From the NCBI GenBank assembly GCA_022707705.1, contig JAKJAC010000012.1, positions 1-39,733 on the forward strand: a DNA stretch of 39,733 bases. Direction: 5' to 3'. Below, in pieces: positions 7,801 to 32,204 of the stretch. The first letter of the stretch is position 1; every line of letters begins with the position of its first letter. Origin of the DNA: Chloroflexota bacterium. GTDB taxonomy: Bacteria > Chloroflexota > Anaerolineae > B4-G1 > SLSP01. Below the pieces are notes generated by a model, which did no database searches, was not told the DNA's origin, and saw only the letters and a program-made list of their open reading frames with translations. The translations under genes and the position numbers were made by a program.

Positions 7801-8541
7801 TTAGGAGCCTGCATGATCATATCTGCCGGCGCGGATATGGCGGCGAATGGCTAACACTTCACGGAACATCCGGTAGGCATCGCGCAGAGGATGAATGCTG
7901 CCCCCTTTGCCATAATACCAGGGAATACCAACCTCGATGATAGGGGATCCCCAACGGCGCGCAATCGCCAGTACTTCGACATCGAAGGCAAAGCCATCAA
8001 CTTTCTGAACCGCAAAAATCCGCTGTCCCACCTCACGTCGGAATGCCTTGAAGCCACACTGCGTATCCTGAATCCCCGGCACTGCCAGAACCCGGACCAT
8101 GAGATTAAAAACCCGCCCCATAAGATGCCGGTAAAAAGGTTCATTGAAGCGCCGTGCGCCAGGGGCTTCACGGGAGCCGATGGCAATATCGTAATCTTTG
8201 CCGAGGCGCTCTGGATAAAACCTGGGTAATTCCTCGATGGGCATGGCAAGGTCCGCATCACAGATGAACACATAGCGTCCATCCGCCTCGAACATTCCTT
8301 TGCGGACTGCAGCGCCTTTTCCTTGAATGGGCTGGTCTATCACGCGCAGGCAAGAATGCTCAGCAGCCACTGCCAAAGCGATGGCGCCGGTCTCGTCACG
8401 GCTATTGTTATTCACCACGAGTACATTCAGCGACGCAGACGCCGCTTCCACAAAGGCGACCACGCGCCTCAGAGTTTCAGGCAGGCGGTGTGCTTCATTA
8501 TAAGCGGGGATTACAATGGTCATTAGCGGACTTCCGCCCAT
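7801..8541 (-). CDS. GT2 glycosyltransferase, polyprenyl/dolichyl-phosphate sugar synthase-like
   Basis: MTIVIPAYNEAHRLPETL ... VVNNNSRDETG ... ICDADL is a typical GT-A family 2 N-terminus with a DxD. Start chosen at ATG 8541, which has GGAG 6 nt upstream. The listed 8610 start would overlap the upstream gene. Confidence 0.8.
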   Translation of the reverse strand: MGGSPLMTIVIPAYNEAHRLPETLRRVVAFVEAASASLNVLVVNNNSRDETGAIALAVAAEHSCLRVIDQPIQGKGAAVRKGMFEADGRYVFICDADLAMPIEELPRFYPERLGKDYDIAIGSREAPGARRFNEPFYRHLMGRVFNLMVRVLAVPGIQDTQCGFKAFRREVGQRIFAVQKVDGFAFDVEVLAIARRWGSPIIEVGIPWYYGKGGSIHPLRDAYRMFREVLAIRRHIRAGRYDHAGS

Positions 8542-8594
8542 TTTGTGCTCCAACAATTTCTCCGGTATTAGCAATTCCATCCAGAACGGACTTT

Positions 8595-9389
8595 TTACAG
8601 AGGTTCCCACCCAACAATCTGCCGCTCTCGATAGTGCGCCAGATGTGAAAAACCGGCTTCCTTTGCCAGCAACCGAGCCTGCTCGAAATGTTGACCTACT
8701 CGTTCTGGTTTATGCGCATCTGAACCGAAGACCAGAATCTCGCCGCCCAGGGCGCGGTACCGGCGCAACACGTTTAACCCAGGACAAGGTTCTGCAAGCC
8801 CGCGGGACAGAGGTGAGGTGTTGATTTCCAGGCCTTTGCCGCGTGCGATGACCGATTCAAGGACAGCATCCACAACTCCCGCGTAGTCCTCGATGGGCAG
8901 GGTCTGTTGTAGCTGCGCCCACGAGTCGCGCCTAACCAAGTCAAAATGCGCCATAACGTCAAACTCGCCTTCACGCGCCAGAATCAGCAATTCCCGGAAG
9001 TATCGCTCGTAAGCTACTTCAATCCCATCATCAAAAGCTACCGGTAACCAACCCGGAATATTATCCGCCCAATGGGTTGAGCCAAGGACATAATCCCAGG
9101 GCCAGGCTGATAAAGCCGTGCGCACTTGCTCAGAGAAGAGGTGCGGGTTGCCGATTTCAATGCCGGCAAGCACCTCAAGCGTGCCGTTCCACTGCGCTTG
9201 AAGTGCGCGCAGCTCTGCGAAATAGGCTTCGAAATTCAGGAAACCCGTCGCTTCGTCTTCTGGAATCCATTCCAGGTGGTCTGTGAAAGCAAATCCCTGC
9301 AGCCCGGTGCGATGCGCAGCCTCGGCTATTGAGGCCATCGTCGAATAGGCATCACAGGAGTGATGGGAGTGGACATGATAATCGATCAT
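8595..9389 (-). CDS. PHP-domain phosphoesterase (HisJ-type histidinol-phosphatase family)
   Basis: N-terminal MIDYHVHSHHSCDA is the canonical PHP metal motif, and later His/Asp motifs follow (GSTHW, FGSDAH). ATG 9389 lies 1 nt after the upstream gene's TAG stop. Confidence 0.75.
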   Translation of the reverse strand: MIDYHVHSHHSCDAYSTMASIAEAAHRTGLQGFAFTDHLEWIPEDEATGFLNFEAYFAELRALQAQWNGTLEVLAGIEIGNPHLFSEQVRTALSAWPWDYVLGSTHWADNIPGWLPVAFDDGIEVAYERYFRELLILAREGEFDVMAHFDLVRRDSWAQLQQTLPIEDYAGVVDAVLESVIARGKGLEINTSPLSRGLAEPCPGLNVLRRYRALGGEILVFGSDAHKPERVGQHFEQARLLAKEAGFSHLAHYRERQIVGWEPL

Positions 9390-9390
9390 A

Positions 9391-10491
9391 CTATGCCATC
9401 CCACGCTGTTGTCGCATCCAGTCCTCTAAATCTAGATAAGCCTCTTCCAATGCCGGAAGCTCCTGCACCCGCGATAGTTTGATACCCAGTTGCCCCATCG
9501 GCATCGCCAGTAAACTGTATAACCGCTCAGAAGCTATCTGCATGCTTTCGGGGCGTCTCCCCAGTCGTTCAAAGGCAGAAAGCAACGCTGGCAATACCTG
9601 TGTCCACAAGTCTGCCAGAGATGGCTGCGGCATCAGCAAACTCACGTCCAGTACAGCCCCCTCCTGTGCATCCACCACCAACAGGGTATAGGGGAAGTAT
9701 GGCGGCGGGCTTCCCTCTTCGATTGGTACTGGCATCATCGCCAGATGCACTTGCACTTCAACATTCTTCAAGGGTAGCTTGTGCCGTAGGGCAGCAAGAT
9801 CCTGATCCGATATCTGACTCTCGCTGGCAACGACGGGGTACTGAGGAACGAAGACCTGTTGCTTGAAAACCCACTCTCCATCTTCGATAACACGTGACAA
9901 CAATGGTAGGGTAGTGGGAAGCGTATCCGCCTCCAACAACGGCGGAATTGAGATTTCGCCTTGCTGCTGAGCTTGAGTCACTATCAGAGCCTGTTCCAGC
10001 AACAGTGTTAGGAAACGCGCCTGTGGTCCATTGATGTACCAGGGAAGCCGTGCGGGCGTAAAGTTGCGGAAAAAGGGCCACAGTTTGCGTTCACGGATCC
10101 TCACTTTGGCTTCCTGCACAATCTGCCAATCTAGTGCAGTGAGCGTTTGGCGTGATTCAAAAGATGCTTGCAACTGCGGCGTTTCAAGTAACATCATGCC
10201 ATGCTCACGTTCCCCAAGAAAAGCGCTAGCATATTTCATCCCCCGCAGAGCTGTGAGGTAACATCCCAGGCCCACCTCACCGAGGTAGGTGATCAAAGCA
10301 TGATGTTCACGTATTTCACCGGTGATGGAGCAAAACCCCATCTCACCGGTCTCAGGATTCTGCACGGCGAACAGCAGTTCTTCGAACATCCAATTCCAGG
10401 GCATGGCTGCTTTGAAAGCCTCAGCCGCGCGGAACAGGCGTCGCCACTCCTCTGGGGTGATATGGGGTTCGGGTAAGTCAAATGTGGGCAT
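9391..10491 (-). CDS. Conserved-looking hypothetical protein (366 aa), function unknown
   Basis: Long ORF whose ATG has AAGGAG 7 nt upstream. It is packed tightly between neighbouring genes. I recognise no catalytic or binding motif. Confidence 0.6.
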   Translation of the reverse strand: MPTFDLPEPHITPEEWRRLFRAAEAFKAAMPWNWMFEELLFAVQNPETGEMGFCSITGEIREHHALITYLGEVGLGCYLTALRGMKYASAFLGEREHGMMLLETPQLQASFESRQTLTALDWQIVQEAKVRIRERKLWPFFRNFTPARLPWYINGPQARFLTLLLEQALIVTQAQQQGEISIPPLLEADTLPTTLPLLSRVIEDGEWVFKQQVFVPQYPVVASESQISDQDLAALRHKLPLKNVEVQVHLAMMPVPIEEGSPPPYFPYTLLVVDAQEGAVLDVSLLMPQPSLADLWTQVLPALLSAFERLGRRPESMQIASERLYSLLAMPMGQLGIKLSRVQELPALEEAYLDLEDWMRQQRGMA

Positions 10492-10559
10492 GCCAAATCT
10501 CCTTTCAATCAGGCTTCATAATAACGCAATCTGCTCGTCTATACGACATTGCGCCGCAC

Positions 10560-11516
10560 CTAAAGGATCTCCTCGGGTGCCTTGCAAAACAAATCGCCAG
10601 GAGCTTGCGGAGGCGTCAGGAAACGGAGTGCACCTGCTTCCAATCCAATGATCGCAGGAGTTTCGCCAAAGGGGTCGCCATCCAAATGTACCGCCACACG
10701 CGGGATGGTCTCTAGCTGTATCTGACGCGTGAGAACTTGAATCACAGCCGGATCATGGAGATGTCGTTGGCCAATCAGCATGTGCAGAAAATGACGCAAC
10801 ACATAACCGAGTCCAAGACCCTTGAAGATAAAGATGTCCAGCAAGCCATCATCCATGTAAGCGTGACGGGCGATGGTGAAAAAAGCCGCGTAGAGCTGAA
10901 TATTGCTGGCTACGACGAGCAAAGCTCGGGTATTGAAAGCGCGTCCTTCGACGGCAACCCGGGTGCGGAAGCCTTTGAACCAGGATGCCACCGAAAAAGC
11001 GGCAATGATGTAGGGCAGAGTGCGCAGTCGCTTGGCATATCGGGTCCGCGGTTCCAATTGCGCGGCAATCTCGGCATCTAGACCCGCACCAGCCCAGCAG
11101 ATAAAATAACGCCCGTTAATGACACCCGCATCCACTCGCTGCACACGGCTTTTCAGCAGACTCTCAGCGACCTCGCTGACCTGGTAGGGTGGAACCGGTG
11201 AGAGAATCGGCATGTGCATTTGATGCGCCAAAATATTCCCGGTGCCAACCGGCACAATGCCCAAAATGGTATTCGATCCGACCAGCCCATTGGTAGCCTC
11301 ATTGATCGTACCATCGCCGCCGGCAACCAGTACCAGATCTAGCCCATCATGCGTAGCCTGGCGCGAGAGCCACATAGCATCCCCAGATTTGTGTGTCTCG
11401 ACCAGTTCGACCTGCCAACCGTGGGCGCCCAGATCTTCCGCCAGGCGTTTAAGGATACGGGTCATATCCCAGGGACCCGCGGTGGGGTTATAAATTAATA
11501 GTGTTCGGAAAGCCAT
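10560..11516 (-). CDS. Diacylglycerol-kinase-family lipid kinase (YegS/BmrU-like)
   Basis: LIYNPTAGP near the N-terminus, VAGGDGTINE and PVGTGN motifs. Start taken as ATG 11516 (MAFRTLLIYNP). The listed start at 11570 is a TTG with no SD. Confidence 0.8.
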   Translation of the reverse strand: MAFRTLLIYNPTAGPWDMTRILKRLAEDLGAHGWQVELVETHKSGDAMWLSRQATHDGLDLVLVAGGDGTINEATNGLVGSNTILGIVPVGTGNILAHQMHMPILSPVPPYQVSEVAESLLKSRVQRVDAGVINGRYFICWAGAGLDAEIAAQLEPRTRYAKRLRTLPYIIAAFSVASWFKGFRTRVAVEGRAFNTRALLVVASNIQLYAAFFTIARHAYMDDGLLDIFIFKGLGLGYVLRHFLHMLIGQRHLHDPAVIQVLTRQIQLETIPRVAVHLDGDPFGETPAIIGLEAGALRFLTPPQAPGDLFCKAPEEIL

Positions 11517-19891: not shown

Positions 19892-20643
19892 CAAAACTAC
19901 GCCCGTGGGAAATCATCCTGACTTTGCTGGCGCTACTTGTGTTTTGGCATATCGTTGCCTCGATAGCCCAACTCCCGATTTTGCCCCTCCCACACCGCGT
20001 GCTGCTAACCTTTTTCAAAGAGTTCCCCCAGAATCTAGGGATTCACTTTCTGGCAAGTCTTTACCGCGTCATCAGCAGTATTGGGCTGGCAGTGTTGCTG
20101 GCGGCGCCCGCAGGATTGATCTTAGGGCAAGGTCCCCGGCTCAACCGCGTATTTGCGCCGTTGATCTACCTGCTGTATCCCATCCCAAAAGTTGTATTGG
20201 CGCCGATTATATTGTTGTTTTTGGGAGTGGGTGATTTCCCTAAAATCATTATCATCTTTCTGATCTTGTTTTTTCAGATACTGGTGTTGGTCCGTGATAG
20301 CGCTGCGGCTATTAGGCCTGAATTGTTGCTTAGCGTACGCAGCCTGGGCGCAGGTCGACGTGCGCTCTTTCGATTTGTTTACCTGCCGGCAAGCCTTCCT
20401 GCGGTGCTCACCGCAGTGCGCCAATCTATCGGCACTGCCGTAGCTGTGCTGTATGTTGCCGAGCTCTTTGCCACACGTTGGGGTCTGGGTTACTATATCT
20501 ATCTCAACGGAAGCACACTCTTCAACTACACGGCGATGTATGCCGGCGTTCTGGCAATGAGTTTGTTGGGCATGGGCTTGTACTTCACCGTAGATGCGTT
20601 GGAAAAACGCCTTTGCCGTTGGCGTAACCTGAACCTGCCTTGA
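19888..20643 (+). CDS. ABC transporter permease (type-I importer, SsuC/TauC-like)
   Basis: Six predicted TM segments. EAA-loop-like SVRSLGAGRRALFRFVYLPASLP. The ATGA start/stop overlap with the ATPase gene indicates translational coupling. Confidence 0.85.
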   Translation: MTKLRPWEIILTLLALLVFWHIVASIAQLPILPLPHRVLLTFFKEFPQNLGIHFLASLYRVISSIGLAVLLAAPAGLILGQGPRLNRVFAPLIYLLYPIPKVVLAPIILLFLGVGDFPKIIIIFLILFFQILVLVRDSAAAIRPELLLSVRSLGAGRRALFRFVYLPASLPAVLTAVRQSIGTAVAVLYVAELFATRWGLGYYIYLNGSTLFNYTAMYAGVLAMSLLGMGLYFTVDALEKRLCRWRNLNLP

Positions 20644-20787
20644 GAATGGGTATGGGACGGATTATTGGCTTTTGCCGCATATTAGGTGGCAATTAGGGTG
20701 ACTGGGCTTTCGTAGCAGGTCGCTGACCCAAACCGTGCTATGCCCCTTGCGCAACATCTGAAGCGGGAGCAAGGCATTTGGCCCGGG

Positions 20788-20825
20788 GTTGACGCGTCAA
20801 CGGGTTGACGCGTCAACCCGTTGAC
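20788..20825. promoter_or_regulatory. Array of five alternating GTTGAC/GTCAAC half-sites at exact 8-bp phasing (operator-like)
   Basis: GTTGACgcGTCAACggGTTGACgcGTCAACccGTTGAC. It contains two perfect 14-bp palindromes (20788-20801, 20804-20817) and a perfect 20-bp palindrome (20801-20820). It lies about 100 bp upstream of the candidate Roadblock-operon promoter. Confidence 0.6.
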
Positions 20826-20924
20826 GAAGCAGCCATATCGCGCAGTGGGCTTTATAGGGGACGCAGAAGCCCATTGAACTGCTACGAATGCCCCGACTCT
20901 GAATACTTACGCGATAATGCTTTC

Positions 20925-20953
20925 TTGACAATACACTATTCCTGTGGTAACCT
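20925..20953 (+). promoter_or_regulatory. Candidate sigma70 promoter (TTGACA-N17-TAACCT) of the Roadblock operon
   Basis: Perfect -35 TTGACA at 20925-20930, a 17-nt spacer and TAACCT at 20948-20953. It is about 75 nt upstream of ATG 21027. Confidence 0.45.
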
Positions 20954-21026
20954 TTTTATAACTCAGAAACTCGATTTCCTGGACATTTTGATAGTTTCTT
21001 TATCCCCAAATCGGAGGAAATGAACG

Positions 21027-21404
21027 ATGGCAAGTCGGCGGTCGCGAACGGAACAGATGGTCGAGCGCTTGCGGGATTTGCAGATTAGCAGTCCCGATAT
21101 CGAAGCTGCAGCGATAGTGAGTGTGGATGGGTTGCCCATCGCCTCGTCACTGCCCCAAGGGGTCGAAGAAGACCGGGTCTCAGCCATGTCAGCCGCAATG
21201 CTCTCCCTTGGTGAGCGCATTGCGACCGAGTTGGGTCGGGGTATGCTCGATGAAGTATATGTCAAAGGTGAAAAGGGCTACGTCATCCTCCGCGCCGTGG
21301 GGGAAGAAGCCGTGCTTACCGTGCTGGCACGCCAGCAAGCCAAATTAGGCTTACTCTTCCTCGATATGCGCCGGGCAGCTGAAGAGCTGGCCGCCATCCT
21401 TTAA
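21027..21404 (+). CDS. Roadblock/LC7 (MglB-like) domain protein
   Basis: IEAAAIVSVDGLPIASSLP....DRVSAMSAAMLSLGERIA......EVYVKGEKGYVILRAVGEEAVLTVL is the canonical Roadblock/LC7 pattern. GGAGGAAA SD upstream. Confidence 0.85.
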   Translation: MASRRSRTEQMVERLRDLQISSPDIEAAAIVSVDGLPIASSLPQGVEEDRVSAMSAAMLSLGERIATELGRGMLDEVYVKGEKGYVILRAVGEEAVLTVLARQQAKLGLLFLDMRRAAEELAAIL

Positions 21405-21426
21405 TAACCCAGCAAGGAGGAATACA

Positions 21427-22068
21427 GTGGCTAACACTCCAGTACCCAGTAGTCTGTATTACCCTAATCGCTTTGCGCTGATTCTGCTTAAAGCACTGGA
21501 AGAAATCATGGGGCGCAACGGCTTGAATGCGGTGCTCAATATGGGTGGTCTGGCGCATTGGATTACCACACCACCTGCCGACAATATGGAGAAGAGTGAG
21601 TTTGACTTCGCCTACATGGCGGCACTCAACGAAGCCCTCGAGGAGATGTATGGACGGCGCGGCGGGCGAGGCTTGCAATTGCGACTGGGGCGTGTGCTTT
21701 TTGTTGAGGGCCTGGCGAATTTCGGCGCCCTGGTAGGCGCCAGCGACCTGGCGTTCAAGATTATGCCTTTACCCACCAAACTCAAGGCTGGCTTGCCGGC
21801 GGTCGCCAAAGTCTTCGATAGTTTGAGCGATCAGACCTCCTATGTGGTAGACCCAGGTGGCGACCATTACCTGTACCACATTGCGCGGTGTTCGATGTGT
21901 TGGGACCGCCATGTGGATCACCCGGTGTGTTTCATTGCTTCCGGTATTTTGGAGGAAGCGCTGCGCTGGGTTAGCAGTGGGCGCACATTCCGAGTAGATG
22001 AGATCAGCTGCATTGGGATGGGAGATCAAACCTGCTCTTACGCCATTTACAAAGAACCCATCGGTTAA
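21427..22068 (+). CDS. V4R (4-vinyl reductase-type) small-molecule-binding domain protein
   Basis: The C-terminal CSMCWDRHVDHPVCFIASGILEEALRWVSSGRTFRVDEISCIGMGDQTCSYAI matches the Cys-spaced V4R signature. The GTG start has an AAGGAGGAA SD. Confidence 0.75.
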   Translation: MANTPVPSSLYYPNRFALILLKALEEIMGRNGLNAVLNMGGLAHWITTPPADNMEKSEFDFAYMAALNEALEEMYGRRGGRGLQLRLGRVLFVEGLANFGALVGASDLAFKIMPLPTKLKAGLPAVAKVFDSLSDQTSYVVDPGGDHYLYHIARCSMCWDRHVDHPVCFIASGILEEALRWVSSGRTFRVDEISCIGMGDQTCSYAIYKEPIG

Positions 22069-22080
22069 GCGGTTCTCTTA

Positions 22081-22968
22081 GTGAGTGTTATGGACTCTGT
22101 CGAGACTCTGCAACACATTCTGGTAGTGGAAGATGATCCTAACACAGCAGAGATGCTGACGGCGTATTTTGCATCTCTGGGGTATCAGGTTACACACGCA
22201 GCCTGGGGTCAAGATGCTCTAACGCTAGCTGCACAAAATGTACCGGATTTGGTAGTTCTGGATATTCATCTGCCGGATATTGACGGTTATGAGGTTTGTT
22301 CGCGCCTACGTTCACAGCGCCGAACGATGAATACTCCCATTATCTTCCTGACTGAGCGCAATGAGCGCCGGGATAGGCTAACCGGCTTAGAGCTTGGTGC
22401 CGTAGACTACCTGACTAAGCCCTTTGATGTGCAAGAGATTCGCTATCGTGTGCGCAATATTCTGCGTCGCAGTACCTCCAACGCGCTATTGCACCCGCTC
22501 ACCGGGCTTCCGACCGCCGACCTGATTGAGGCTCAGGTGCAGCGACTTCGACTACAGTCGGAGCTAATTCTGGTAGGCGTGCGCATCAACGGCATGAGCG
22601 CCTTCAGTGATGCTTATGGCTTCGTCAGTCACGATGATATTCTGAGAGCCGTTGCCCTGATTCTGCGCAATACGATGACAGAGATGGTGGTGGAAGATGC
22701 TTTTGTGGGGCATCTTCACGCTTACGATTTCGTATTGATTGTTCCAGAGTCGCAACAGTATCTGCTTATGGGACGTCTGTACCAACGGCTACAAGAAGCG
22801 ATTTCATTCTTCTATCCCTATCAAGACTGGGAAAGCGGGCGTCTGGAAGATGGTACGCCATTGCCCAAAATCGAGTTCGATGTGCGCATGATACAGTCCG
22901 CGCAGGTTCCGCCGAATTGCGATCTGGAGCTTTTACGACAAGCGCTATTTAGTACACCCAAGAATTAG
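22081..22968 (+). CDS. Response regulator: intact REC domain + degenerate GGDEF-like output domain
   Basis: REC carries VVEDD, the phospho-acceptor in VVLDIHLPD (D codon 22261-22263), FLTE and LTKPF. The C-terminal domain begins HPLTGLP like a GGDEF domain. The GGDEF position reads HAYDF (22717-22731) and the upstream metal-binding D.D reads RING. ATG 22090 is an alternative start. Confidence 0.8.
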   Translation: MSVMDSVETLQHILVVEDDPNTAEMLTAYFASLGYQVTHAAWGQDALTLAAQNVPDLVVLDIHLPDIDGYEVCSRLRSQRRTMNTPIIFLTERNERRDRLTGLELGAVDYLTKPFDVQEIRYRVRNILRRSTSNALLHPLTGLPTADLIEAQVQRLRLQSELILVGVRINGMSAFSDAYGFVSHDDILRAVALILRNTMTEMVVEDAFVGHLHAYDFVLIVPESQQYLLMGRLYQRLQEAISFFYPYQDWESGRLEDGTPLPKIEFDVRMIQSAQVPPNCDLELLRQALFSTPKN

Positions 22969-22983
22969 ATATGGGGGCTGATT

Positions 22984-23022
22984 CAACAGATCCAGGGATG
23001 TCTCCTGGGTCTGTTGTTTTTT
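22984..23022 (+). terminator. Rho-independent terminator of the Roadblock-V4R-RR operon
   Basis: CAACAGATCCAGG-gatgtct-CCTGGGTCTGTTG followed by TTTTTT. Confidence 0.8.
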
Positions 23023-23120
23023 CAGTCATTGCAGCTGCCTGGCGAGTTTGAGAAGTGCGTTAGCGGCATTGCCCCCTAAATCAAAACAGTGCTGCTAATC
23101 ACCCCACAAGAGTACCATTC

Positions 23121-26100
23121 ATGGCAAAAATACGAGTCTGGATTACACAACACGGATTGCCGATTCTTTTGTTACTGCTGGCGCCTTTGCTGCTCTTTGC
23201 ACCGGTGGTCATAGGAGATGCTACCCTTCTCCCCGCCGATGCGCTTATGCTTTTTGAACCCTTCCGCTCGACGGCGCAGGAATTGATCCCACCGCACAAT
23301 CCGCTGCTCGCCGACCTGGTGTTGCAAAACTACCCCTGGCAACGTCTCATCGTCAACGCACTCAAACAAGGCGAAATCCCCTGGTGGGACCCGTTTACCT
23401 TCTCCGGGCATCCTTTTCTAGCAAACGGTCAAGCCATGGGGTTTTACCCGCTCCGCGTGATTTTCCACATCTTCCCCCTACCACGAGCTTATGGTATCTT
23501 TATCACCCTGCAATTGGGATTGGCGGGTGTATGGATGTACGTGCTCGCCCGCGTTTTGCATGCCAATCGACTGGGGGCAGTACTGGCAGGTTTGACCTTC
23601 GAGCTCAGTGGTTTTCTGGTGGTTTCCGCCGTTCATCCCATGATTATTGCCACCGCCTCGTGGCTACCGCTGTTACTGGCGCTCGCAGAACTCGGCATAC
23701 GTCGTGCTCCTTTCTTGCGTTTTGGGCGCAGCACCTTGCCCTGGGCGCTGTTGGGAGCGGCGGCGCTGCTGATGCAATTGCTCGCAGGTCATGCAGAGAC
23801 CGCCTACTTTGCTCTATTGGTGCTGGTAGCTTTTGTAGCCTACCGATTGCTCTACCGGTTGCTGACGCTCCCCAAATCGGAATGGCGCACCGAAGTGCTC
23901 ACCCCGGCGCTCAGTCTTCTCCTCATGGGGGTGTTGGGCATCGGACTGGGTGCGCTACAGTATCTGCCACTCTACGAAAGTGTGAGCGCCAGTTTCCGCC
24001 AGGGCGCAGTTGCCTTGCAAGAAGTCTTGGGCTGGGCTTATCCCAAACGGCGCATGCTGACTTTTCTGATTCCGAACTTTTTTGGCAACCCCACTCACCG
24101 GGCGTTTCAGGACATTTTCACCGGTAAATGGATTCAAGCCACAGTGAATGCATTTGGCAGCCCTGTCAGCGCCTTCGAGTGGGGCATCAAGAATTATGTA
24201 GAAGGCGGCGCGTACATGGGCTTGCTGCCGCTGGCATTGGCACTGCTGGCGGTACTGGATGCGTTCCGTGGAACTGCCAGCGCCAGGGCCATTGGGCATC
24301 GCTGCATCGAACGACTACGCCTGTTTTTCCGGCAACCCTATACCCCATTTTTCACCCTTCTGGCGCTGTTTGCTCTGGGTTGCATCTTCGGTACACCAGT
24401 GTATGCCATCGTCTATGCATTGCCCCTGCTCAGTCAATCTCATAGCCCCTTCCGCTGGGTCTTCCCGCTCACGGTGGCAGTGGCAGCGCTCGCAAGTCAG
24501 GGGGCAACGGCGGTAGCCCGCTCGCGTCGCTCTGCAACGCAAACAGGACAACCGGCTCAAAGCGAACCAGTTTTCTCGCGCGTGGTGCGCTGGTTAGGAT
24601 GGGGGATTCTGGGCAGCGGGGTCGCGTTGCTGGCAGGCTTGTGGCTCTCACGGTTGGCTTTCCCTGGCATCGAGCCGTGGGTCGAGCGGCTCTTCTGGGC
24701 GTTGGCAAAAGCGCCGGATACCTTCCCCGATGCGCGTACATTCTACGCTTACGAATTCCGTTGGATACAGCAAGCCGCGCTGTTGCTCATCGTCACTGGC
24801 ACAGTGTTGCGTGTGTCACGCTGCCCTATCTTCCTGCCGCAAAGGCTAAAACGGCGCCCGATATGGGAATCATTAGCCCTTGTGGTGCTCATAGTAGACT
24901 TGCTCAGCTTCGGTTGGGGCTTCAACCCGCAGGCTGATTCTGCCCCATTGTCCGTCACTCCACCCGTTGTCGAATTCCTCCGCCAGGATCAGGGCGTCTG
25001 GCGCCTCTCGAGTTTCGACCCTCATGGAAGTCGCGTACTCGATTCCAACACGGCGATGTACTTTGATTTTCAGGATGTGCGGGGTTATGATAGCACCTTT
25101 GCTACACAATATGTCCGTTACATGAATTGGATCGAACCACAAGGGCAATTGCTCTACAACCGCATTGCCCCATTTACCCAGTTCTCCAGTCTCGATAGCC
25201 CGTTAACGGACTTACTCAATGTCAAGTACATCCTTACCGATGTCGAAATTCCGCTGCCCAAGTATCAGCTGGTCTACGAAGAACCGGCCCTGCGTGTCTA
25301 CGAGAATCTCACAGTCATGTCCCGTGCCTTCACTTTACCGCAAAGCGCCACCATCGTAGTCCCTGATGCAGAGGCGGTGGGCACTACGCTTCAAACCTAC
25401 GATCCGCGTTTCTACGTCATCATCGAGGCGGTGCAAGAGGCGTGGAGCGGCAGCGCTCCCACACCCGGCGCTTGGCCCCGCCCCTTCGCGGCAGGGGAAC
25501 CGCAGGCACAAGTCATCACTGCCTATGGACTCAATCAGGTCGTGGTGGATGCCACTGTGGCGGAAGACGCATGGCTTGTCCTCGGCGATGCTTTCTTTCC
25601 TGGTTGGAAAGCCTTTGTGCGCCCCCAAGGCACAGGTGAGGATAGTGAGACCGAGATTCCCATTGCGCGGGTGGCAGGCAATTTCCGGGGGGTGCGCCTC
25701 ACTCCCGGCGCATGGACGGTGCGCTTTCGCTACACCCCTAACAGTGTGAAATTCGGGGTCTTTATCTCTTTCTTGTCGGGAATGATTGCGCTTTTCCTCG
25801 CAGTGGCGTGGGGCTGGAGGCGACTCTACCGTGAGAATACCCAGGCTTCCACAACCCAACGGTTGGCGAAGAACAGTATTGTTCCCATTGCACTCAATCT
25901 CTTCAACCGGATGGTGGATTTCGCTTTTGCTGCATTGATGCTGCGTATACTGGGTCCGGATAATGCCGGGCAATACTACTATGCCGGTAGCATCTTCATG
26001 TGGTTCGATATCATCACCAACTTCGGACTCAACACCTATCTCACCCGCGAAGTATCACGCTATCAAGAGCAAGCGCGACGTTACCTGGTCAATACCTCGC

Positions 26101-27341
26101 TGTTGCGACTGGGGTTGGCTGTGCTCGGCGTGCCCCTGCTGGTGGGCTTCATTGCCGTGCGGCAGACACTCGTGGCAGCGCTCACCGTGCCGGCAGCGCA
26201 ATCGGCGCTCCTGGCGCTGGTGTTGCTCTATGTGGGCTTGATCCCCAATTCCATCGCCACAGGGCTTTCGGCGCTTTTCTATGCGCACGAGAAAGCCGAG
26301 TTTCCTGCAGCTGTAACAACCATCTCCACGTTGCTCAAAGTTGGCTTGGGTACAGCCGTGCTGCTTGGCGGGTTGGGTATCGTAGGGCTGGCGGCTTCAG
26401 CCATCGCCGTTAACATCATCACGCTGGTGATTCTGGGGGCGCTGGCATGGCGGCAGATTCCCGCGCTAAAGACTGCTGCGCCCTCTCGCATCGCGTTGCG
26501 TGCAGCCACAGAGCGCACCCTGCGCCGGAAGATGCTCAGTGAGTCTTGGCCCCTCATGGTCAATCACCTGCTGGCAACGCTGTTCTTCAAGATTGATGTG
26601 CCGCTCATGGAAGCGATTCTGGGGAATGAAGCCCTGGGCCTCTATAGCACGGGTTACAAATACCTCGATGCACTCAACGTGATTCCCTCTATGTTTACCA
26701 TGGCGCTCTTCCCCGTCATCTCGCGGAAAGCGGTGGAGGATCGCGCCGGTTTTGTGCGCTTCTTCCAACTGGGTGTGAAAATCCTCACGCTGTTAGTGCT
26801 ACCGGCAGCCATTATCGCCACGCTGGGAGCGCGGGAGCTGGTGCTGCTGCTGGGCGGACCGGAATACCTGCCCGGCGGAATGATTGCACTGCAACTGATG
26901 GCATGGTCTATGGTCATCGGTTGGACCAACAGCCTTACCCAATACGTGCTGATTGCTCTGAACCAACAACGCTATCTCATGCGTGCCTATATGCTGGCGC
27001 TAAGCTTCAATCTGATTGCCAATTTGGTGTTGATGCCGCGTTTCGGTTATCAGGCTTCAGCGTTATTACATACAGCAGCAGAGCTGATGTTGTTCATCCC
27101 CTTCACCATTCGCCTGTACCAGCAGGTTGGGCGTCTTAACTGGTGGGGAATGTTGGGTAAGCCATTGATTGCCGCAGTCTGCGCCGCGCCGGTCGCCGCA
27201 GTGCTCTTCCCATTGAACCGCCTGGCAGCATTGGTGGGGGCGCTCCTCATTTATGGGGTGGTCAGCTGGCGCTTGCGAATCTTTGATGCCGAAGAGCGCC
27301 AGGTATTAGCGCCGGTATTTGGGAGCAGAAAGGGAAGCTGA
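23121..27341 (+). CDS. Fusion membrane protein: YfhO-family GT-C glycosyltransferase (aa 1 to ~890) + MOP/Wzx-type polysaccharide flippase (aa ~910-1406)
   Basis: Single 1406-aa ORF. The N-terminus has the YfhO-style LQNYPWQ...GEIPWWDPFTFSGHPFLANGQAMGFYP. It continues through many TMs and a large loop to a terminal TM after FRYTPNSVKFGVFISF. From about nt 25855, LAKNSIVPIALNLFNRMVDFAFAALMLRILGPDNAGQYYYA plus about 12 more TMs is a typical Wzx/MOP flippase. Confidence 0.8.
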   Translation: MAKIRVWITQHGLPILLLLLAPLLLFAPVVIGDATLLPADALMLFEPFRSTAQELIPPHNPLLADLVLQNYPWQRLIVNALKQGEIPWWDPFTFSGHPFLANGQAMGFYPLRVIFHIFPLPRAYGIFITLQLGLAGVWMYVLARVLHANRLGAVLAGLTFELSGFLVVSAVHPMIIATASWLPLLLALAELGIRRAPFLRFGRSTLPWALLGAAALLMQLLAGHAETAYFALLVLVAFVAYRLLYRLLTLPKSEWRTEVLTPALSLLLMGVLGIGLGALQYLPLYESVSASFRQGAVALQEVLGWAYPKRRMLTFLIPNFFGNPTHRAFQDIFTGKWIQATVNAFGSPVSAFEWGIKNYVEGGAYMGLLPLALALLAVLDAFRGTASARAIGHRCIERLRLFFRQPYTPFFTLLALFALGCIFGTPVYAIVYALPLLSQSHSPFRWVFPLTVAVAALASQGATAVARSRRSATQTGQPAQSEPVFSRVVRWLGWGILGSGVALLAGLWLSRLAFPGIEPWVERLFWALAKAPDTFPDARTFYAYEFRWIQQAALLLIVTGTVLRVSRCPIFLPQRLKRRPIWESLALVVLIVDLLSFGWGFNPQADSAPLSVTPPVVEFLRQDQGVWRLSSFDPHGSRVLDSNTAMYFDFQDVRGYDSTFATQYVRYMNWIEPQGQLLYNRIAPFTQFSSLDSPLTDLLNVKYILTDVEIPLPKYQLVYEEPALRVYENLTVMSRAFTLPQSATIVVPDAEAVGTTLQTYDPRFYVIIEAVQEAWSGSAPTPGAWPRPFAAGEPQAQVITAYGLNQVVVDATVAEDAWLVLGDAFFPGWKAFVRPQGTGEDSETEIPIARVAGNFRGVRLTPGAWTVRFRYTPNSVKFGVFISFLSGMIALFLAVAWGWRRLYRENTQASTTQRLAKNSIVPIALNLFNRMVDFAFAALMLRILGPDNAGQYYYAGSIFMWFDIITNFGLNTYLTREVSRYQEQARRYLVNTSLLRLGLAVLGVPLLVGFIAVRQTLVAALTVPAAQSALLALVLLYVGLIPNSIATGLSALFYAHEKAEFPAAVTTISTLLKVGLGTAVLLGGLGIVGLAASAIAVNIITLVILGALAWRQIPALKTAAPSRIALRAATERTLRRKMLSESWPLMVNHLLATLFFKIDVPLMEAILGNEALGLYSTGYKYLDALNVIPSMFTMALFPVISRKAVEDRAGFVRFFQLGVKILTLLVLPAAIIATLGARELVLLLGGPEYLPGGMIALQLMAWSMVIGWTNSLTQYVLIALNQQRYLMRAYMLALSFNLIANLVLMPRFGYQASALLHTAAELMLFIPFTIRLYQQVGRLNWWGMLGKPLIAAVCAAPVAAVLFPLNRLAALVGALLIYGVVSWRLRIFDAEERQVLAPVFGSRKGS

Positions 27342-27522: not shown

Positions 27523-28734
27523 ATGGAGTTATCACAACTGGAACAGATGGTGCACTGGCTTGACCAGGAGCGCAAGAAAGACAAGGCGCTCATAGCCACC
27601 CTGCAAGAGCGGAGTGAACAACAGGCGCTGACCATCGAAGCTCAGGCGCGCGACCTGGAAGCGCTGCTTCGAGAATTGGGGCAATTAGGGGCAGATATTC
27701 GCCGAACAGATGATTATCCTGCCATGATCGAGAAAACGCATCGCGATCTCACCGCTGCGATTGAGGAACTAAAAGCCATACAACGCAGAGAGAAAATGGA
27801 ATCCGAACGCTTGCGTCGCGCCGAGATCGAAGCTCTGTCACAAGAGGTCATCACCGTAGACGAACGCTATCGTCCCACCCTGCGTTACCCTGAGATGCTC
27901 GAGGCGCGCGCCGTGGGAGAGCAACGCTTGCAGACCCAATTACAGCAGCTCACCGGTAGCGTAGCGGACCTCACCAAGCGCACCGACGACCGCTTACAAG
28001 CGGTCGTGTATTTGGAAGAACAGCGCCGCGCCGATACGCGCCGTGTGGCGGCTGTGGAAGGCGATTTACCGCCGTTACGCAAGAGCGTGGACGAATTCAA
28101 TGCCAAATTGCTGCGCCTCGAAGATAGCATCCGTAAGTTGCCGGCGCGCGTGGAAGAGGCGATTCAAATTGCTAAATCCTATGATCCCAAAATCGAGGAA
28201 TTGCGGGTGGCAGACTTCCAACGTGAACAGCGTGTACGGCAGTATCTCGACCAGGCTGCCCAGGTGCAAGCAGAGGTTGCCCGTCTGGTGGAGCAAACCC
28301 AGAAATACGCTCTGCTCTTTAACCAGAACAAGCAAGCGTTGGATGCTCTCGAATCCTTCCGGGTGCGATTGGAAAAACGCCAGAATGAAATCGCCGAGAT
28401 GCAGCGGCTCAATGAGGAACGCCTCAAACGCGAATGGGAAGAATGGCAATCTGCCTTTGCACGCGACTGGCAGAAACGCCTGGTGACCGAGGAAGACCGC
28501 TGGCGCCGCGAGGATTTGATGGATCAACGGTTCACCGAGCATTTTGTCCAACTCGACGAGACCTCAAAGCTGTACTTCGACGAGCTGGCGGCACTCTGGG
28601 AAGAGTTGCGCCAATTGGCGGATCGCTGGGGAAATCTGGTGCGCGATAAGGTGCTCGCCGATCAGGAGATACCAGCACAACGTCTCAAAGCCCTGCGGCG
28701 CTTCGCTGAAGAAAAACGCAAAGACCTGCTATAA
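27523..28734 (+). CDS. Charged coiled-coil protein (403 aa), function unknown
   Basis: AAGGAG SD. E/R/K/Q/L-rich sequence with heptad-like periodicity throughout. No TM segment and no enzymatic motif. Confidence 0.7.
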   Translation: MELSQLEQMVHWLDQERKKDKALIATLQERSEQQALTIEAQARDLEALLRELGQLGADIRRTDDYPAMIEKTHRDLTAAIEELKAIQRREKMESERLRRAEIEALSQEVITVDERYRPTLRYPEMLEARAVGEQRLQTQLQQLTGSVADLTKRTDDRLQAVVYLEEQRRADTRRVAAVEGDLPPLRKSVDEFNAKLLRLEDSIRKLPARVEEAIQIAKSYDPKIEELRVADFQREQRVRQYLDQAAQVQAEVARLVEQTQKYALLFNQNKQALDALESFRVRLEKRQNEIAEMQRLNEERLKREWEEWQSAFARDWQKRLVTEEDRWRREDLMDQRFTEHFVQLDETSKLYFDELAALWEELRQLADRWGNLVRDKVLADQEIPAQRLKALRRFAEEKRKDLL

Positions 28735-28843: not shown

Positions 28844-30421
28844 CTATGCTGTATAGCGCCACTCGCCGCCAACCATCACACGTTGCACGCGCGTCTCCAA
28901 TAACGCCTCCGGGGGCGCCGAGAAGATATCACGGTCCAATACGACCAGGTCCGCAAAATAGCCTGGAAGTAGGCGCCCTTGGCAATGCTCCTGCCCAATT
29001 GCGTAAGCCGCACCCCAGGTATATGCCTTGAGTGCGTCGGTCAAGGTGAGCCGTTCCTGGGGCTGCCAACCCTCAGGACCAGGGGAGCCATCACGTTCAT
29101 GACGACGGGTGACAGCCGCATACAGCCCCAATAGCGGATCGAAAGATTCAATAGGTGCATCGGAACCAAAAGCAAGGCGCGCGCCGGTTTTCAGCAACGA
29201 TTGCCAGGCATAGCTCAGGGTGCAGCGTGCGCCCCAATAGCGCTCTGCCATCGCCCAATCATGGGGCGCGTGAACGGGTTGCATCGAAGCTACCACATCC
29301 AGCTGCGCCAACCGAGGTAAATCCTCCCGGCTCAACAGCTGGACGTGTTCAATGCGGTGACGTAACGTTGGGTTGAGCGGTTGCACCTCGTCCAACACGT
29401 CCAGCACCAGGCGGTTAGCCCGGTCGCCAATCGCGTGAATCGCCAGCGCCAGCCCACCGGCTACAGCCCGCCGGGCGATAGCGCGCAATGCATCAGGTTC
29501 AAGCGTCAACAGACCTGTATTCTCCGGTTCTTCTGCGTAAGCCGCCAGCATCGCCCCAGTACGCGCCCCTAATGCGCCATCCACAAAGAGCTTTAGCCCG
29601 CAGAAGCGCAGCCATTCGTCACCATAGCCGCTACGCAATCCCACTTCCAACAGACCGTCGAGCGCCTCCAGGCGTACATATTTGCCCACTCGCAGCTGGA
29701 GCGCCCCCTCTTGCCGTAAAAGCTGCAGCGCCGAGAAGGCAGGTCCACCATCCACATCGTGCACACCCGTGAGACCTTTCTGCAACAGCCGAGGTTGCGC
29801 TGCACGGATCGCAGCGGCAACTTGTGCTACCGTAGGCTCGGGAATGACAGACTCCACAGCATCAACCGCATATTCAAAGAGCATGCCATCCAGGGCGCCG
29901 TTAGCCGTTCTTCCAAAACGACCCTGCGGCGGATCGGGTGCAACCACATCCAGACCTGCCAGGCGCAGCGCCGCTGAATTGGCGACCGCTGCATGAGCGT
30001 TCTTGGCAATCAGCAATACCGGGTGATGTGGGGCGACCCTATCCAGTTCGGCTGCCGTAGGGAAGCGCGTGTCAACCCAAAGAGTCTGGTCCCAACCACG
30101 TCCTCGAATCCAGCCGCCCGGCGGCGCTGCCGTTACCGCGTCTGCCACGACTGCAAGCAATGCTTCTCGCGATAGGTCGCGGAGTTCCAGATCAGCCAGG
30201 CTGAGTGCATACCACATCAGGTGGATGTGCGCATCCACCAATCCGGGAAGAACTACTGCAGCCTGCAGGTTTTCTACGCGAGTCTGAGGGGCTGTTGCCC
30301 ACGCCAGTGCTGCCTGCCCGATAGCGACGATTTGTGAATCCACCAACGCTACCGCATCTGTCCATGGTTGTTGCCGGTCGCCGGTGTAAAAGCGTCCGTT
30401 TTTGAGTAGCCGAATCCTCAT
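28844..30421 (-). CDS. Metal-dependent amidohydrolase (YtcJ-like, Amidohydro_3)
   Basis: VLPGLVDAHIHL metal motif near the N-terminus, then later HAIGD and FGSDAP motifs. Start set at ATG 30421 (MRIRLLKNGRFYTG), directly after the upstream gene's stop. Confidence 0.8.
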   Translation of the reverse strand: MRIRLLKNGRFYTGDRQQPWTDAVALVDSQIVAIGQAALAWATAPQTRVENLQAAVVLPGLVDAHIHLMWYALSLADLELRDLSREALLAVVADAVTAAPPGGWIRGRGWDQTLWVDTRFPTAAELDRVAPHHPVLLIAKNAHAAVANSAALRLAGLDVVAPDPPQGRFGRTANGALDGMLFEYAVDAVESVIPEPTVAQVAAAIRAAQPRLLQKGLTGVHDVDGGPAFSALQLLRQEGALQLRVGKYVRLEALDGLLEVGLRSGYGDEWLRFCGLKLFVDGALGARTGAMLAAYAEEPENTGLLTLEPDALRAIARRAVAGGLALAIHAIGDRANRLVLDVLDEVQPLNPTLRHRIEHVQLLSREDLPRLAQLDVVASMQPVHAPHDWAMAERYWGARCTLSYAWQSLLKTGARLAFGSDAPIESFDPLLGLYAAVTRRHERDGSPGPEGWQPQERLTLTDALKAYTWGAAYAIGQEHCQGRLLPGYFADLVVLDRDIFSAPPEALLETRVQRVMVGGEWRYTA

Positions 30422-30423
30422 AT

Positions 30424-30981
30424 TTACAATCCCAAAATCTGCGCCAACCAGGCGATACCGTAATATCCGCCCCAAGCGAAGACAATCGCCTTGATAGTTT
30501 TTCCAGCCCAGGCAGACAGATAGAACTTCCACACAGGGAATCCTGTGGCGCCGCCGGCAATACCTGCCAGATCAAAGAGAGGCATAGGCACAACACCCAT
30601 TAAGAAAACGGTAAGGACTCCATTCCGGCGCATCCAGCCTTCGATCGTTGGATAAACTCGCCAGTGATTTGCGATATCCTCAACCGCATATCCGGCAAGG
30701 TAGCCCCAAAGTTCCCCCAATGAATCGCCGAATCCCGCGCATAATCCCACAAACCAGGGCGTCAGCACCGACCCCATGGTAAAGGTGAAGGCTAGGTGGG
30801 GAATGGGGAGAACTACCGTCGTGCTTCCCACAAAAGCCATCAGGAAAACACCCAGATAGCCAAGTTCACGAAATTGGGCGATGCTGAGACGTTCACGGAA
30901 GACAATGACTAGAATGGTGACAATGATGAAGAAACCCACCAGGAAAGCTCGCAGAGCTTTGATCCACTTTGTTTTGTGCAT
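30424..30981 (-). CDS. VTT-domain (DedA/YqaA-like) membrane protein
   Basis: 185-aa polytopic protein with a glycine-rich re-entrant-like segment GFGDSLGELWGYLAGY. Size and pattern resemble the YqaA/DedA family. This assignment is tentative. Confidence 0.6.
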   Translation of the reverse strand: MHKTKWIKALRAFLVGFFIIVTILVIVFRERLSIAQFRELGYLGVFLMAFVGSTTVVLPIPHLAFTFTMGSVLTPWFVGLCAGFGDSLGELWGYLAGYAVEDIANHWRVYPTIEGWMRRNGVLTVFLMGVVPMPLFDLAGIAGGATGFPVWKFYLSAWAGKTIKAIVFAWGGYYGIAWLAQILGL

Positions 30982-31211: not shown

Positions 31212-32204
31212 TCAGGGTTGGGAAGGAAGACGCTGTGCTAGCAACGCCAGCTTAGGTTCTACCTCATACCAGCTAATCTCTGAAAGCCCCAATTTCTGAC
31301 GCAATGCCTCGCGGTCCATGTCGCTAAGAAAATCCCGTACCGCGCAAGTCCAACGCAACATCTCAAACGAGAGGCGTTCGAGACCTGCATCAGCGCCCAC
31401 GCGCGTGAGGATATACTCCAAATTGCGCGGCGTCCAGGGAAAGAGATACTGCCGCGGATGATAAGCCTGAAGATACTCCTGCAACACGGGGGGCCACCAA
31501 TCCGGCAACAGAATGCGCCGTTCCTTATGTTGGCGACTGGGTTGATTATAGCGAATCCATAGCGCAGGGCGCGCGGGGTTGGTCAGGTCAATGTGATTGG
31601 GAACAATCTTGACACATTCGCCCTTCTTAACGCCGGTGTGAAGTAACAACGTAATCAAGGTATAGGGTCGGGGGTCAGCTGGCTGTCCGGCGCTTCCCGC
31701 ACGCAGATGTTGGGCGACTTCGAGTACGGCGCGGCTCTGCGCTTCGGTTAGAAAATCCGGTAGAGGGGGTGAAACGGTGCGATGAATCAGTGGAGCAGCC
31801 GGGTCACGCGTCAACGTGCCAATCTCCGTCAACCAGCCGAAAAAGACTTTCAAGCTGGTAATTCGACGCTCAAGCGTTTTGGGACTGCACGCAATCCCCC
31901 GGGAGTCGGTCATCCAGGTAAGGAAGGCGCTGAGGTTAGCAGTAGCGATATGTCCCACCGCGATGCCTGGACCAAGGTATTCGGAGAGTAGCTGCAAATC
32001 AAGGCGGAATGCCTGGCGCGTATTCGCCGTGAAGCCACGCTGCTCCATATAATGTTCAAAGGCGCCGAGTGCCTTGTTGAAAGCCGATCCGGCATCAAGG
32101 TCAGGTTTGGGGGCAGGTTTGGGCGAGGGCGCAGGAGCATCTGTAGTCCCGAAAAGTGGCAACTGCGCCGCAAAACCCTGTTCGTGCTCCGTGTCTACCA
32201 TCAC
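31212..32204 (-). CDS. Tyrosine-recombinase/integrase-like protein with apparently degenerate catalytic residues
   Basis: SAM-like N-domain (TLERRITSLKVFFGWL) and a core-domain box I LLLHTGVKKGE, with K where the catalytic R is expected. Box II reads FEMLRWTCAV. The C-terminus is LGLSEISWYEV. It sits at the edge of the repeat-rich region and the GC-rich block. Confidence 0.7.
   Translation of the reverse strand: MMVDTEHEQGFAAQLPLFGTTDAPAPSPKPAPKPDLDAGSAFNKALGAFEHYMEQRGFTANTRQAFRLDLQLLSEYLGPGIAVGHIATANLSAFLTWMTDSRGIACSPKTLERRITSLKVFFGWLTEIGTLTRDPAAPLIHRTVSPPLPDFLTEAQSRAVLEVAQHLRAGSAGQPADPRPYTLITLLLHTGVKKGECVKIVPNHIDLTNPARPALWIRYNQPSRQHKERRILLPDWWPPVLQEYLQAYHPRQYLFPWTPRNLEYILTRVGADAGLERLSFEMLRWTCAVRDFLSDMDREALRQKLGLSEISWYEVEPKLALLAQRLPSQP

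Follow-up and report, generated by a model that had tools for sequence, protein, structure and literature searches.

The subject of this analysis is a cluster of three tightly packed genes in a stretch of 39,733 nucleotides (nt; 39.7 kb) from a bacterium of the Chloroflexota (assembly GCA_022707705.1, contig JAKJAC010000012.1), which in its entirety we call the window and whose numbering is used for all coordinates. The genes encode a Roadblock/LC7 protein of the MglB type, a V4R protein and a response regulator in which a receiver (REC) domain precedes a degenerate GGDEF-like domain. A model that saw the sequence alone had regarded them as a self-contained signaling module without a GTPase; we refer to its reading as the original prediction. 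With moderate confidence we interpret the trio instead as one cassette, on the MglB side, of a small-GTPase system that is dispersed, coupled to envelope glycosylation and conserved in the Anaerolineae. We favor this interpretation because the trio is conserved, is contiguous with an MglA-family GTPase in relatives and is linked to glycan genes, and because both a census of Anaerolinea thermophila and the wiring of the Myxococcus xanthus system provide precedent for it. The three open reading frames (ORFs) lie where they had been placed, and their domain composition was confirmed by Pfam, supplemented by AlphaFold2 (AF2) models for the V4R and GGDEF-like domains. The operon consists of the following elements, with protein lengths in amino acids (aa):

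20925..20953, forward strand: promoter, with -35 TTGACA at 20925-20930, a 17-nt spacer and an extended -10 (TGTGG + TAACCT) at 20943-20953
21027-21404, forward strand: Roadblock/LC7 (MglB-type) gene, 125 aa, Shine-Dalgarno GGAGG at 21013-21017
21427-22068, forward strand: V4R protein gene, 213 aa, Shine-Dalgarno AAGGAGG at 21414-21420
22081-22968, forward strand: response regulator gene, 295 aa, with the receiver at about residues 13-124 and the GGDEF-like domain at about residues 137-290
22984..23022, forward strand: intrinsic terminator, with a 14-pair stem at 22984-23016, a 5-nt loop and T6

A scan of one genome per species recovered at least 580 loci, and the best 80 of these, nearly all labelled as Anaerolineae-class or Chloroflexota and including the cultured Anaerolinea thermolimosa, were analysed. 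The co-occurrence that the original prediction had proposed to survey proved real, with Roadblock, V4R and regulator genes being conserved neighbors in 50 of the 80 species genomes. The V4R gene stands next to the regulator in 58 loci, 50 of which have the Roadblock gene and 8 of which lack it; one further locus ends after the Roadblock-V4R pair, and the other 21 hold a V4R paralogue in a setting of MiaB-like and CARDB genes. The Roadblock protein is the most conserved product of the cluster, with 66-98% identity across the class (70-98% in genome loci), as against 44-94% (56-94% in genome loci) for the V4R protein and 41-79% (44-79% in genome loci) for the regulator.

The link to a GTPase emerged from two divergent V4R homologues (46-48% identity), which sit in a gene set with a PATAN protein and a small GTPase. 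We would thus distinguish a module 1, composed of the Roadblock, V4R and REC::degenerate-GGDEF genes, a family 2 glycosyltransferase (GT2) and, variably, a YfhO::flippase fusion, from a module 2 that contains the GTPase. The full system would be the sum of both, and they are contiguous in some relatives. The composition of module 2 is as follows:

Module 2, in relatives: PATAN (PatA_N/DUF4388), GTPase, alpha/beta hydrolase, a second V4R protein (V4R2), a hexapeptide-repeat (LbH) protein and sometimes a Shikimate_DH-like (SDH-like) protein
Module 2, continued, in relatives: a 295-aa REC::GGDEF-like response regulator (RR2) and a giant kinase of 1800-1970 aa (GAFx7, PAS, HisKA, HATPase_c)

The GTPase of module 2 is a Ras/Arf-like protein of 177 aa (range 177-179) with the motifs GPFSSGKT, GTPGQ and NKQD. 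Among solved structures its best matches were two Arf chains (E=2e-8 and 7e-8), with MglA close behind (E=7e-7); it is 28% identical to the M. xanthus MglA sequence that was used as a query, and the GTPase of locus L046 scores 44.7 bits against that same query. On these sequence matches the GTPase is assigned to the MglA family. A metagenome scan centered on it gave at least 561 matches at 79-94% identity, from which 80 loci were kept, and the GTPase and the Roadblock protein are the two most conserved components of the system. In L046, from an Anaerolineales genome, the Roadblock, V4R, regulator, GT2, PATAN, GTPase, hydrolase, V4R2, LbH, SDH-like and RR2 genes follow one another on one strand; nothing was identified beyond RR2 in this locus, and the giant kinase was not seen there. 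Directly upstream of the Roadblock gene of L046 (7384-8742) lies a REC-PAS-GGDEF diguanylate cyclase whose GGDEF domain scores 189 bits. The same tandem arrangement recurs on one strand of the metagenome contigs L093-L095, where the giant kinase then follows, whereas in L109, L141, L150 and L151 the PATAN-GTPase genes are convergent with GT2-V4R-Roadblock, an arrangement also present in truncated form in L115. In all, genes orthologous to the trio are contiguous with the PATAN-GTPase pair in at least 8 independent contigs. A V4R gene lies within the locus in 22 of the 32 GTPase loci with at least 3 kb of downstream sequence, and among those with at least 6 kb downstream, 17 of 21 contain the regulator and 18 of 21 the kinase. 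DUF742 had no match in the GTPase clusters of the relatives.

The window itself is devoid of these partners, as had been asserted. Pfam scans of every substantial ORF of the window detected neither a small GTPase nor DUF742, PATAN or a histidine kinase, nor were these families found among all its ORFs of at least 60 aa in a hidden Markov model (HMM) and phmmer screen, and a six-frame tblastn search of the window with M. xanthus MglA and the Anaerolineae GTPase likewise uncovered no GTPase. The sole P-loop candidate in the window is an unrelated THEP1-like NTPase (6535-7242, reverse strand). This absence speaks for the notion of a self-contained, GTPase-independent module, in which V4R ligand binding and receiver phosphorylation would be conveyed through contacts of the Roadblock protein and the non-catalytic GGDEF-like domain. 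Such a module would also be in keeping with the conserved promoter and terminator that the trio has for itself, with the 57 of 58 V4R-regulator genome loci that have no GTPase within 10 kb, and with a 2015 census in which 328 of 749 MglB homologues were orphans, none of them characterised by then (PMC4316618). However, the joining of the orthologous trio to PATAN-GTPase genes in the independent contigs described above speaks against it. Moreover, for the complete genome of Anaerolinea thermophila UNI-1 the census records a single orphan MglB (ANT_03760) together with a single orphan MglA of group 5 (ANT_06780), a 179-aa protein encoded beside a PATAN gene (PMC4316618 supplement). In size and context this MglA matches the GTPase described here, and the unlinked arrangement matches the situation in A. 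thermolimosa (L038), where the trio and GT2 are present with no GTPase within 10 kb. Unlinked partners are indeed normal for the MglA family: neither M. xanthus nor Bdellovibrio has mglA located close to the genes that encode its response-regulator partners (PMC4316618). Since the trio is joined to a GTPase and a kinase in relatives, and unlinked partners are normal, the claim of self-containment is unsupported at the level of the system: the terms GTPase-less and kinase-less describe the window but not the orthologous trio, which is found joined to PATAN, the MglA-family GTPase and the giant kinase. We consequently regard a GTPase-independent module as unlikely.

Of the roughly 58 related V4R-regulator loci, 8 have kinase-like ORFs within 10 kb. 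A minority of loci have such genes beside the trio, namely L028 (7633-9243), L043-L045 and L075 (11244-16946). The 1900-aa kinase of L075 is a strong match (E=1e-96) to the giant GAF-PAS kinase that accompanies the GTPase, and in L043-L045, which have no Roadblock gene, the kinases are transcribed divergently from the V4R gene.

The first protein of the trio is a member of the Robl_LC7 family (PF03259, E=4e-20). Among solved structures it matches 7F8M_A, with 53% identity over 117 columns (E=7e-33); this entry is a 120-aa 'Robl_LC7 domain-containing protein' and would serve as a structural template. More distant matches among solved structures are CvnB5 (3LEQ, E=1e-9) and MglB (E=3e-3). Roadblock and longin domains are platforms for GTPases (PMC3747258). 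In the system proposed here, the Roadblock dimer may act on an unlinked MglA-like GTPase, either in a GTPase-activating (GAP) role or as a platform.

The V4R protein scores 31.1 bits against PF02830, a borderline value given the cutoff of 31, and in sequence it is only marginally similar to V4R and Bet3 proteins of solved structure. However, its AF2 model (pLDDT 91) retrieved structures of H-NOX, TRAPPC3/Bet3 and the phenol sensor MopR in Foldseek searches, with template modeling (TM) scores of 0.6-0.7 for H-NOX and, under normalisation by the target, as high as 0.70 for TRAPPC3; PDB 6AQ3 was also among the matches. The borderline Pfam calls for this protein and for the GGDEF-like domain are therefore upheld, as the AF2 models give matching folds in both cases. 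C155, C158, C168, C195 and C203 are conserved, with cysteine in at least 90% of the family. Of these, C168, C195 and C203, together with E192, pair as C168, E192, C195 and C203 with a Cys, Glu, Cys, Cys series in MopR, in an alignment whose E-value is only 0.42, and we take these MopR positions to be its Zn ligands. The protein would be a candidate for the input end of the system, with an H-NOX/Bet3-type pocket and a putative Zn-binding Cys/Glu site receiving a small molecule or lipid.

More than 1200 homologues of this V4R protein were found, all the named ones being from Anaerolineae or Chloroflexota, and a profile search with a diverse V4R alignment had only Anaerolineae among the best 120 matches listed. 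Fusions of Roadblock with V4R might have been expected among the longer homologues; the fusions seen were instead TIR-V4R (P0251, P0272, P0287) and Ser/Thr kinase-TIR-V4R (P0259), all containing full-length V4R homologues with 40-46% identity. They point to the use of the same V4R sensor module in other signaling settings, or possibly in defense. A third V4R paralogue, 55-59% identical to that of the window, is found in L051, L058, L066, L071 and about 17 other genome loci (at about 10001-10620). It is surrounded by genes for a MiaB-like radical-SAM/TRAM enzyme, a CARDB/SH3/Big_7 surface protein and a receiver-domain protein of 680-1030 aa. Because this paralogue, too, adjoins a receiver protein, the pairing of V4R with a receiver recurs in three separate Anaerolineae contexts.

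The third protein begins with a receiver domain (PF00072 Response_reg, E=2e-29) that had been described as fully phosphorylatable, and its residues agree with that description: across 38 aligned homologues E17, D18, D61 and K113 are invariant and T91 is kept in at least 90%. On sequence grounds the receiver thus looks phosphorylatable. D61 would be phosphorylated by a kinase encoded elsewhere, plausibly one of the GAF-PAS family. The C-terminal domain scores 24.0 bits against PF00990 (cutoff 23.8; profile positions 14-107 of 161), again a borderline value. However, the best Foldseek matches of the AF2 model of the regulator (pLDDT 84) are the REC-GGDEF cyclases PleD, WspR and DgcR, and a profile of 46 such C-terminal domains matches solved cyclases with E=2e-5. 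In the profile alignment with the cyclase 8C05, RING falls on the metal-site DIDY and HAYDF on the active-site GGEEF, in agreement with the proposed loss of the GGDEF and DxD signatures, and VEDA falls on RGSD of the I-site. Of the residues at the 'GGDEF' position the class conserves only the last, an aromatic one, and the family alignment of the regulator retains no acidic residue of the metal site. Nor does the family conserve RxxD at the I-site, which is located five residues upstream of where GGDEF would be. Nevertheless, the domain has invariant motifs of its own, namely YGF..DD..R, FVG[HQ] and [FY]FYP. Given that the catalytic and metal sites are missing class-wide, their loss is an old state rather than a recent decay, and these alignments identify the C-terminal domain as an old, selected, non-catalytic module without the usual c-di-GMP receptor site.

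The fold of the domain nevertheless leaves room for another role, that of a receptor for c-di-GMP or a different nucleotide second messenger, as in PelD, PopA and BcsE, from which the signal would be relayed to the Roadblock and V4R proteins. D53 of the domain alignment, an Asp that pairs with the first residue of the GD[DE] motif of cyclases, is invariant, and this cyclase Asp contacts guanine. The true cyclase just upstream of the trio in L046 also speaks for this role. However, such a neighbor was seen in a single locus, the column matching the Asn of the cyclase N-D pair is variable in the regulator family, and the RxxD motif is missing, being replaced by VEDA in the window. On account of the missing I-site we rate this role as very improbable. 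The original prediction had proposed that the output is protein contact rather than c-di-GMP synthesis. Given the dead active site we judge this to be right as regards the loss of synthesis, and the contacts themselves are plausible: within the dispersed GTPase system the domain would be a docking surface, neither a cyclase nor a c-di-GMP receptor.

The trio is tightly linked to glycan genes (GT2 and YfhO::MOP), a feature that had been overlooked in the original prediction. The genes that follow the terminator in the window are:

23121..27341, forward strand: YfhO::MOP fusion, 1406 aa, a YfhO-type membrane glycosyltransferase joined to a MOP/Wzx flippase, with a probable functional link to the trio
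27523..28734, forward strand: conserved 403-aa protein, coiled-coil-like, following YfhO::MOP, of uncertain membership in the system
28844-30532, reverse strand: Amidohydro_3 enzyme, syntenic with YfhO::MOP in many relatives
30424-30981, reverse strand: DedA/VTT-domain membrane protein, syntenic with YfhO::MOP in many relatives

The YfhO::MOP fusion matches YfhO (PF09586, 42.6 bits against a cutoff of 28.5), Polysacc_synt (PF01943, 110 bits) and Polysacc_synt_3, along with weak matches to the NCBIfam models Wzx_EPS and PgfM2, the latter from the YfhO part and well below the curated cutoff. As a fusion of about 1400 aa it follows the regulator, with or without an intervening GT2, in 40 of the 58 V4R-regulator loci, and a GT2 stands between the regulator and YfhO::MOP, or in place of the latter, in 30 of the 58. 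Where the GT2 is next, its distance from the regulator is mostly zero or negative, suggesting that it is often translationally coupled to the regulator, whereas the gap is mostly about 90-250 nt where YfhO::MOP directly follows. The GT2 of the relatives best resembles the polyprenyl-phosphate sugar synthases ArnC, AglJ, PpgS and PgfS, at scores that stay far short of the curated cutoffs. No GT2 adjoins the trio in the window, and an unrelated-looking GT2 is encoded at 7801-8610 on the reverse strand. The 403-aa protein, which belongs to no Pfam family and has weak SMC-like matches only, follows YfhO::MOP in about 20 loci with 53-86% identity. DedA proteins are linked to the recycling of the undecaprenyl-phosphate carrier, and the DedA/VTT neighbor would fit a glycosylation context. 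Just past this block of conserved synteny, a tyrosine recombinase/integrase (31212-32204, reverse strand) is followed downstream by a beta-lactamase-fold gene, a GNAT gene and two APH-type phosphotransferase genes, which may mark where a mobile or variable stretch begins.

An alternative is that the trio is chiefly a dedicated post-translational regulator of the adjacent GT2 and YfhO::MOP machinery. V4R would then sense an intermediate, either a lipid or a sugar carrier, and the proximity of PATAN-GTPase genes in some genomes would reflect the clustering of envelope and polarity genes and not a direct partnership between Roadblock and the GTPase. The coupling of GT2 in many loci, the frequency with which YfhO::MOP follows and the synteny of the DedA/VTT and 403-aa genes are all congenial to it, as are the 8 loci that hold V4R, regulator and glycan genes without a Roadblock gene. 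A lipid ligand would likewise be consistent with the palmitate held by the pocket of the Bet3 fold (PMC10933270) and with the presence of 6AQ3 among the Foldseek matches. However, this explanation leaves it unexplained why the Roadblock protein, a known GTPase platform, is the most conserved member. Furthermore, paralogues of the V4R protein and the regulator accompany the PATAN-GTPase pair without the GT2 or YfhO::MOP of module 1, and a terminator parts the trio from YfhO::MOP in the clade of the window. We hence consider a dedicated glycan regulator to be quite unlikely, and retain the dispersed GTPase system as the interpretation in which the glycan genes represent the output side.

The signals that delimit the operon were largely as predicted. 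The ribosome-binding sites before the first two genes are strong, as had been claimed, and the genes are closely spaced, with 22 nt between Roadblock and V4R and 12-21 nt between V4R and the regulator, the range reflecting an alternative ATG at 22090 (giving 292 aa) that is the choice of gene callers in public assemblies. A strict sigma-70 consensus scan gave no promoter. However, phylogenetic footprinting revealed a block that is invariant or nearly so 5' of the Roadblock gene, where other intergenic DNA fails to align, and whose variants across the class include TGTGGTAACCT, TATGGTACTCT and TGTGTTAAATT. The trio can be credited with a promoter of its own because this block is conserved across the Anaerolineae. 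The start of the module had been set at 20788; this position falls in a palindromic insertion specific to the strain, upstream of the promoter proper at 20925-20953. At 20786-20826 there are two copies of a 16-nt unit, GGGTTGACGCGTCAAC, each with a perfect 14-bp palindrome, in a segment of about 190 bp (20704-20893) that is bounded by 18-nt inverted repeats with 89% complementarity. The palindromes were found only in contig L006 of the same genome and are missing in L007, whose regulator gene is 96% identical. The tandem palindrome GTTGACGCGTCAAC (20788-20817) was considered as an operator and rejected, as it is strain-specific and lies inside the insertion flanked by the inverted repeats. The segment looks like an insertion akin to a miniature inverted-repeat transposable element (MITE) or a repetitive extragenic palindrome (REP), and not an operator of the operon. 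An Rfam scan of 20400-23400 returned nothing credible.

At the other end, the clean terminator that had been described is present as the 14-pair stem with T6. A hairpin and T-run follow the regulator in 18 of the 28 related loci in which YfhO::MOP is next, but in only 4 of the 36 in which GT2 is next. These signals indicate that the trio is a separate three-gene transcription unit in the clade of the window, and the operon is descended from, and still adjoins, an envelope-glycosylation gene set. In this clade, the loss of GT2 from its module 1 position would have left an operon of three genes that ends in a terminator of its own. The GTPase would be encoded outside the 39.7 kb.

Within the dispersed GTPase system that we favor, the output would be to control, possibly in space, those envelope glycosylation reactions that require a polyprenyl-phosphate carrier and involve GT2 and YfhO::MOP. 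Several observations weigh against this interpretation. The window contains no GTPase, and one is found within 10 kb in only 1 of the 58 V4R-regulator genome loci. Loci with module 2 alone pair the GTPase with the paralogues V4R2 and RR2 and have no Roadblock gene, and the 8 V4R-regulator loci without Roadblock imply that it is dispensable there for V4R and the regulator. The terminator between the trio and YfhO::MOP in the clade of the window is a strong one. Furthermore, the precedent from A. thermophila takes ANT_03760 as the putative orthologue of the Roadblock protein of the window, and the identification of GT2 as a polyprenyl-phosphate synthase draws on matches far below curated cutoffs and is accordingly a putative one.

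A bolder version of the proposal is that V4R and Roadblock together form a regulatory platform for the MglA-family GTPase, gated by phosphorylation through the REC::degenerate-GGDEF adaptor and by a V4R ligand, either a lipid or a small molecule, and directing the place or time of synthesis of polyprenyl-phosphate-linked envelope glycans. We advance it only tentatively, since we rate it as rather improbable in this full form. If true, TRAPP or Ragulator would have a counterpart of like composition among prokaryotes. The stand-alone V4R proteins of prokaryotes, to which a review of 2013 could still assign no clear function (PMC3791482), would then gain their first functional context.

Apart from this, the gene neighborhoods yield a concrete and testable inventory of components for a small-GTPase system other than that of myxobacterial motility. 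In it, an orphan Roadblock family is locked class-wide to V4R, to a regulator that looks phosphorylatable and whose cyclase domain is dead, and to envelope-glycosylation genes. The literature that we searched holds no paper tying V4R to MglA, MglB or PATAN and none describing this operon, and on that literature this is the first gene context in prokaryotes to connect the V4R/Bet3 fold with both the Roadblock fold and a Ras-like GTPase. In a 2024 study of Asgard archaea, the GTPase, Roadblock and TRAPPC3 genes were not in operons, and hence the partners could not be assigned (PMC10933270). V4R has been proposed as the ancestor of Bet3 (PMC2253512). The gene-context link described here is relevant to the proposal that GTPase regulators of the TRAPP type have prokaryotic ancestors.

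Among known systems, the closest is the polarity module of M. xanthus, with MglA, MglB, RomR, RomX, MglC and RomY, which likewise combines Roadblock proteins, a receiver-containing regulator and an MglA-family GTPase, and whose partners can be unlinked; the combination is made up of MglA, MglB, MglC and RomR (PMC4316618; PMC9481161, PMC10329633). However, the Roadblock gene of the Anaerolineae is in an operon with V4R, REC::degenerate-GGDEF and, in relatives, GT2, no equivalents of RomX, RomY or MglC were identified in the Anaerolineae clusters, and the neighboring genes suggest a role in envelope glycosylation rather than motility. Pairs of PATAN with group-5 MglA, as well as orphan MglB proteins, had already been catalogued in Chloroflexi including A. 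thermophila (PMC4316618), and these PATAN-linked systems, too, are among the closest known.

The actinobacterial conservon, which comprises the CvnA kinase, CvnB Roadblock protein, CvnC DUF742 protein and CvnD GTPase, also resembles the gene sets of the relatives in clustering Roadblock, GTPase and kinase genes. The original prediction had reasoned that regular flanking by a GTPase or kinase would make the trio an ordinary conservon fragment; such flanking does occur in some relatives, but the conservon assignment does not follow from it. We reject that assignment, because the Anaerolineae clusters lack DUF742, their kinase is a soluble GAFx7-PAS protein of 1800-1970 aa in place of the membrane HAMP kinase of the conservon, and they contain PATAN, V4R and response regulators, the last of which are absent from conservons.

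Further parallels concern individual components. H-NOX sensors that work with kinases or GGDEF/EAL proteins resemble the V4R protein, which is likewise a stand-alone protein some 200 aa long whose gene neighbors that of a GGDEF-type protein and, in relatives, that of a histidine kinase. However, the V4R family has a conserved Cys/Glu cluster that aligns with MopR and its GGDEF partner is dead. The likeness is one of fold and wiring only. PelD, PopA, BcsE and GdpS are degenerate-GGDEF regulators of polysaccharide production, and as in the present case a catalytically dead GGDEF domain serves there as a regulatory module beside glycan genes. Nevertheless, PelD, PopA and BcsE act through an intact RxxD I-site that binds c-di-GMP and that is missing here. 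BcsE has a tandem of receiver-like and GGDEF-like domains, whereas the receiver of the Anaerolineae regulator looks fully phosphorylatable. The broadest parallel is with the eukaryotic complexes TRAPP, a Rab exchange factor built from Bet3-family and longin-fold subunits, and Ragulator, a Roadblock platform for Rag GTPases: the same combination of folds is brought together in one genetic unit in the Anaerolineae, although the best fold match of the V4R protein is H-NOX and not Bet3, and the likeness to TRAPP is one seen at the level of the genes.

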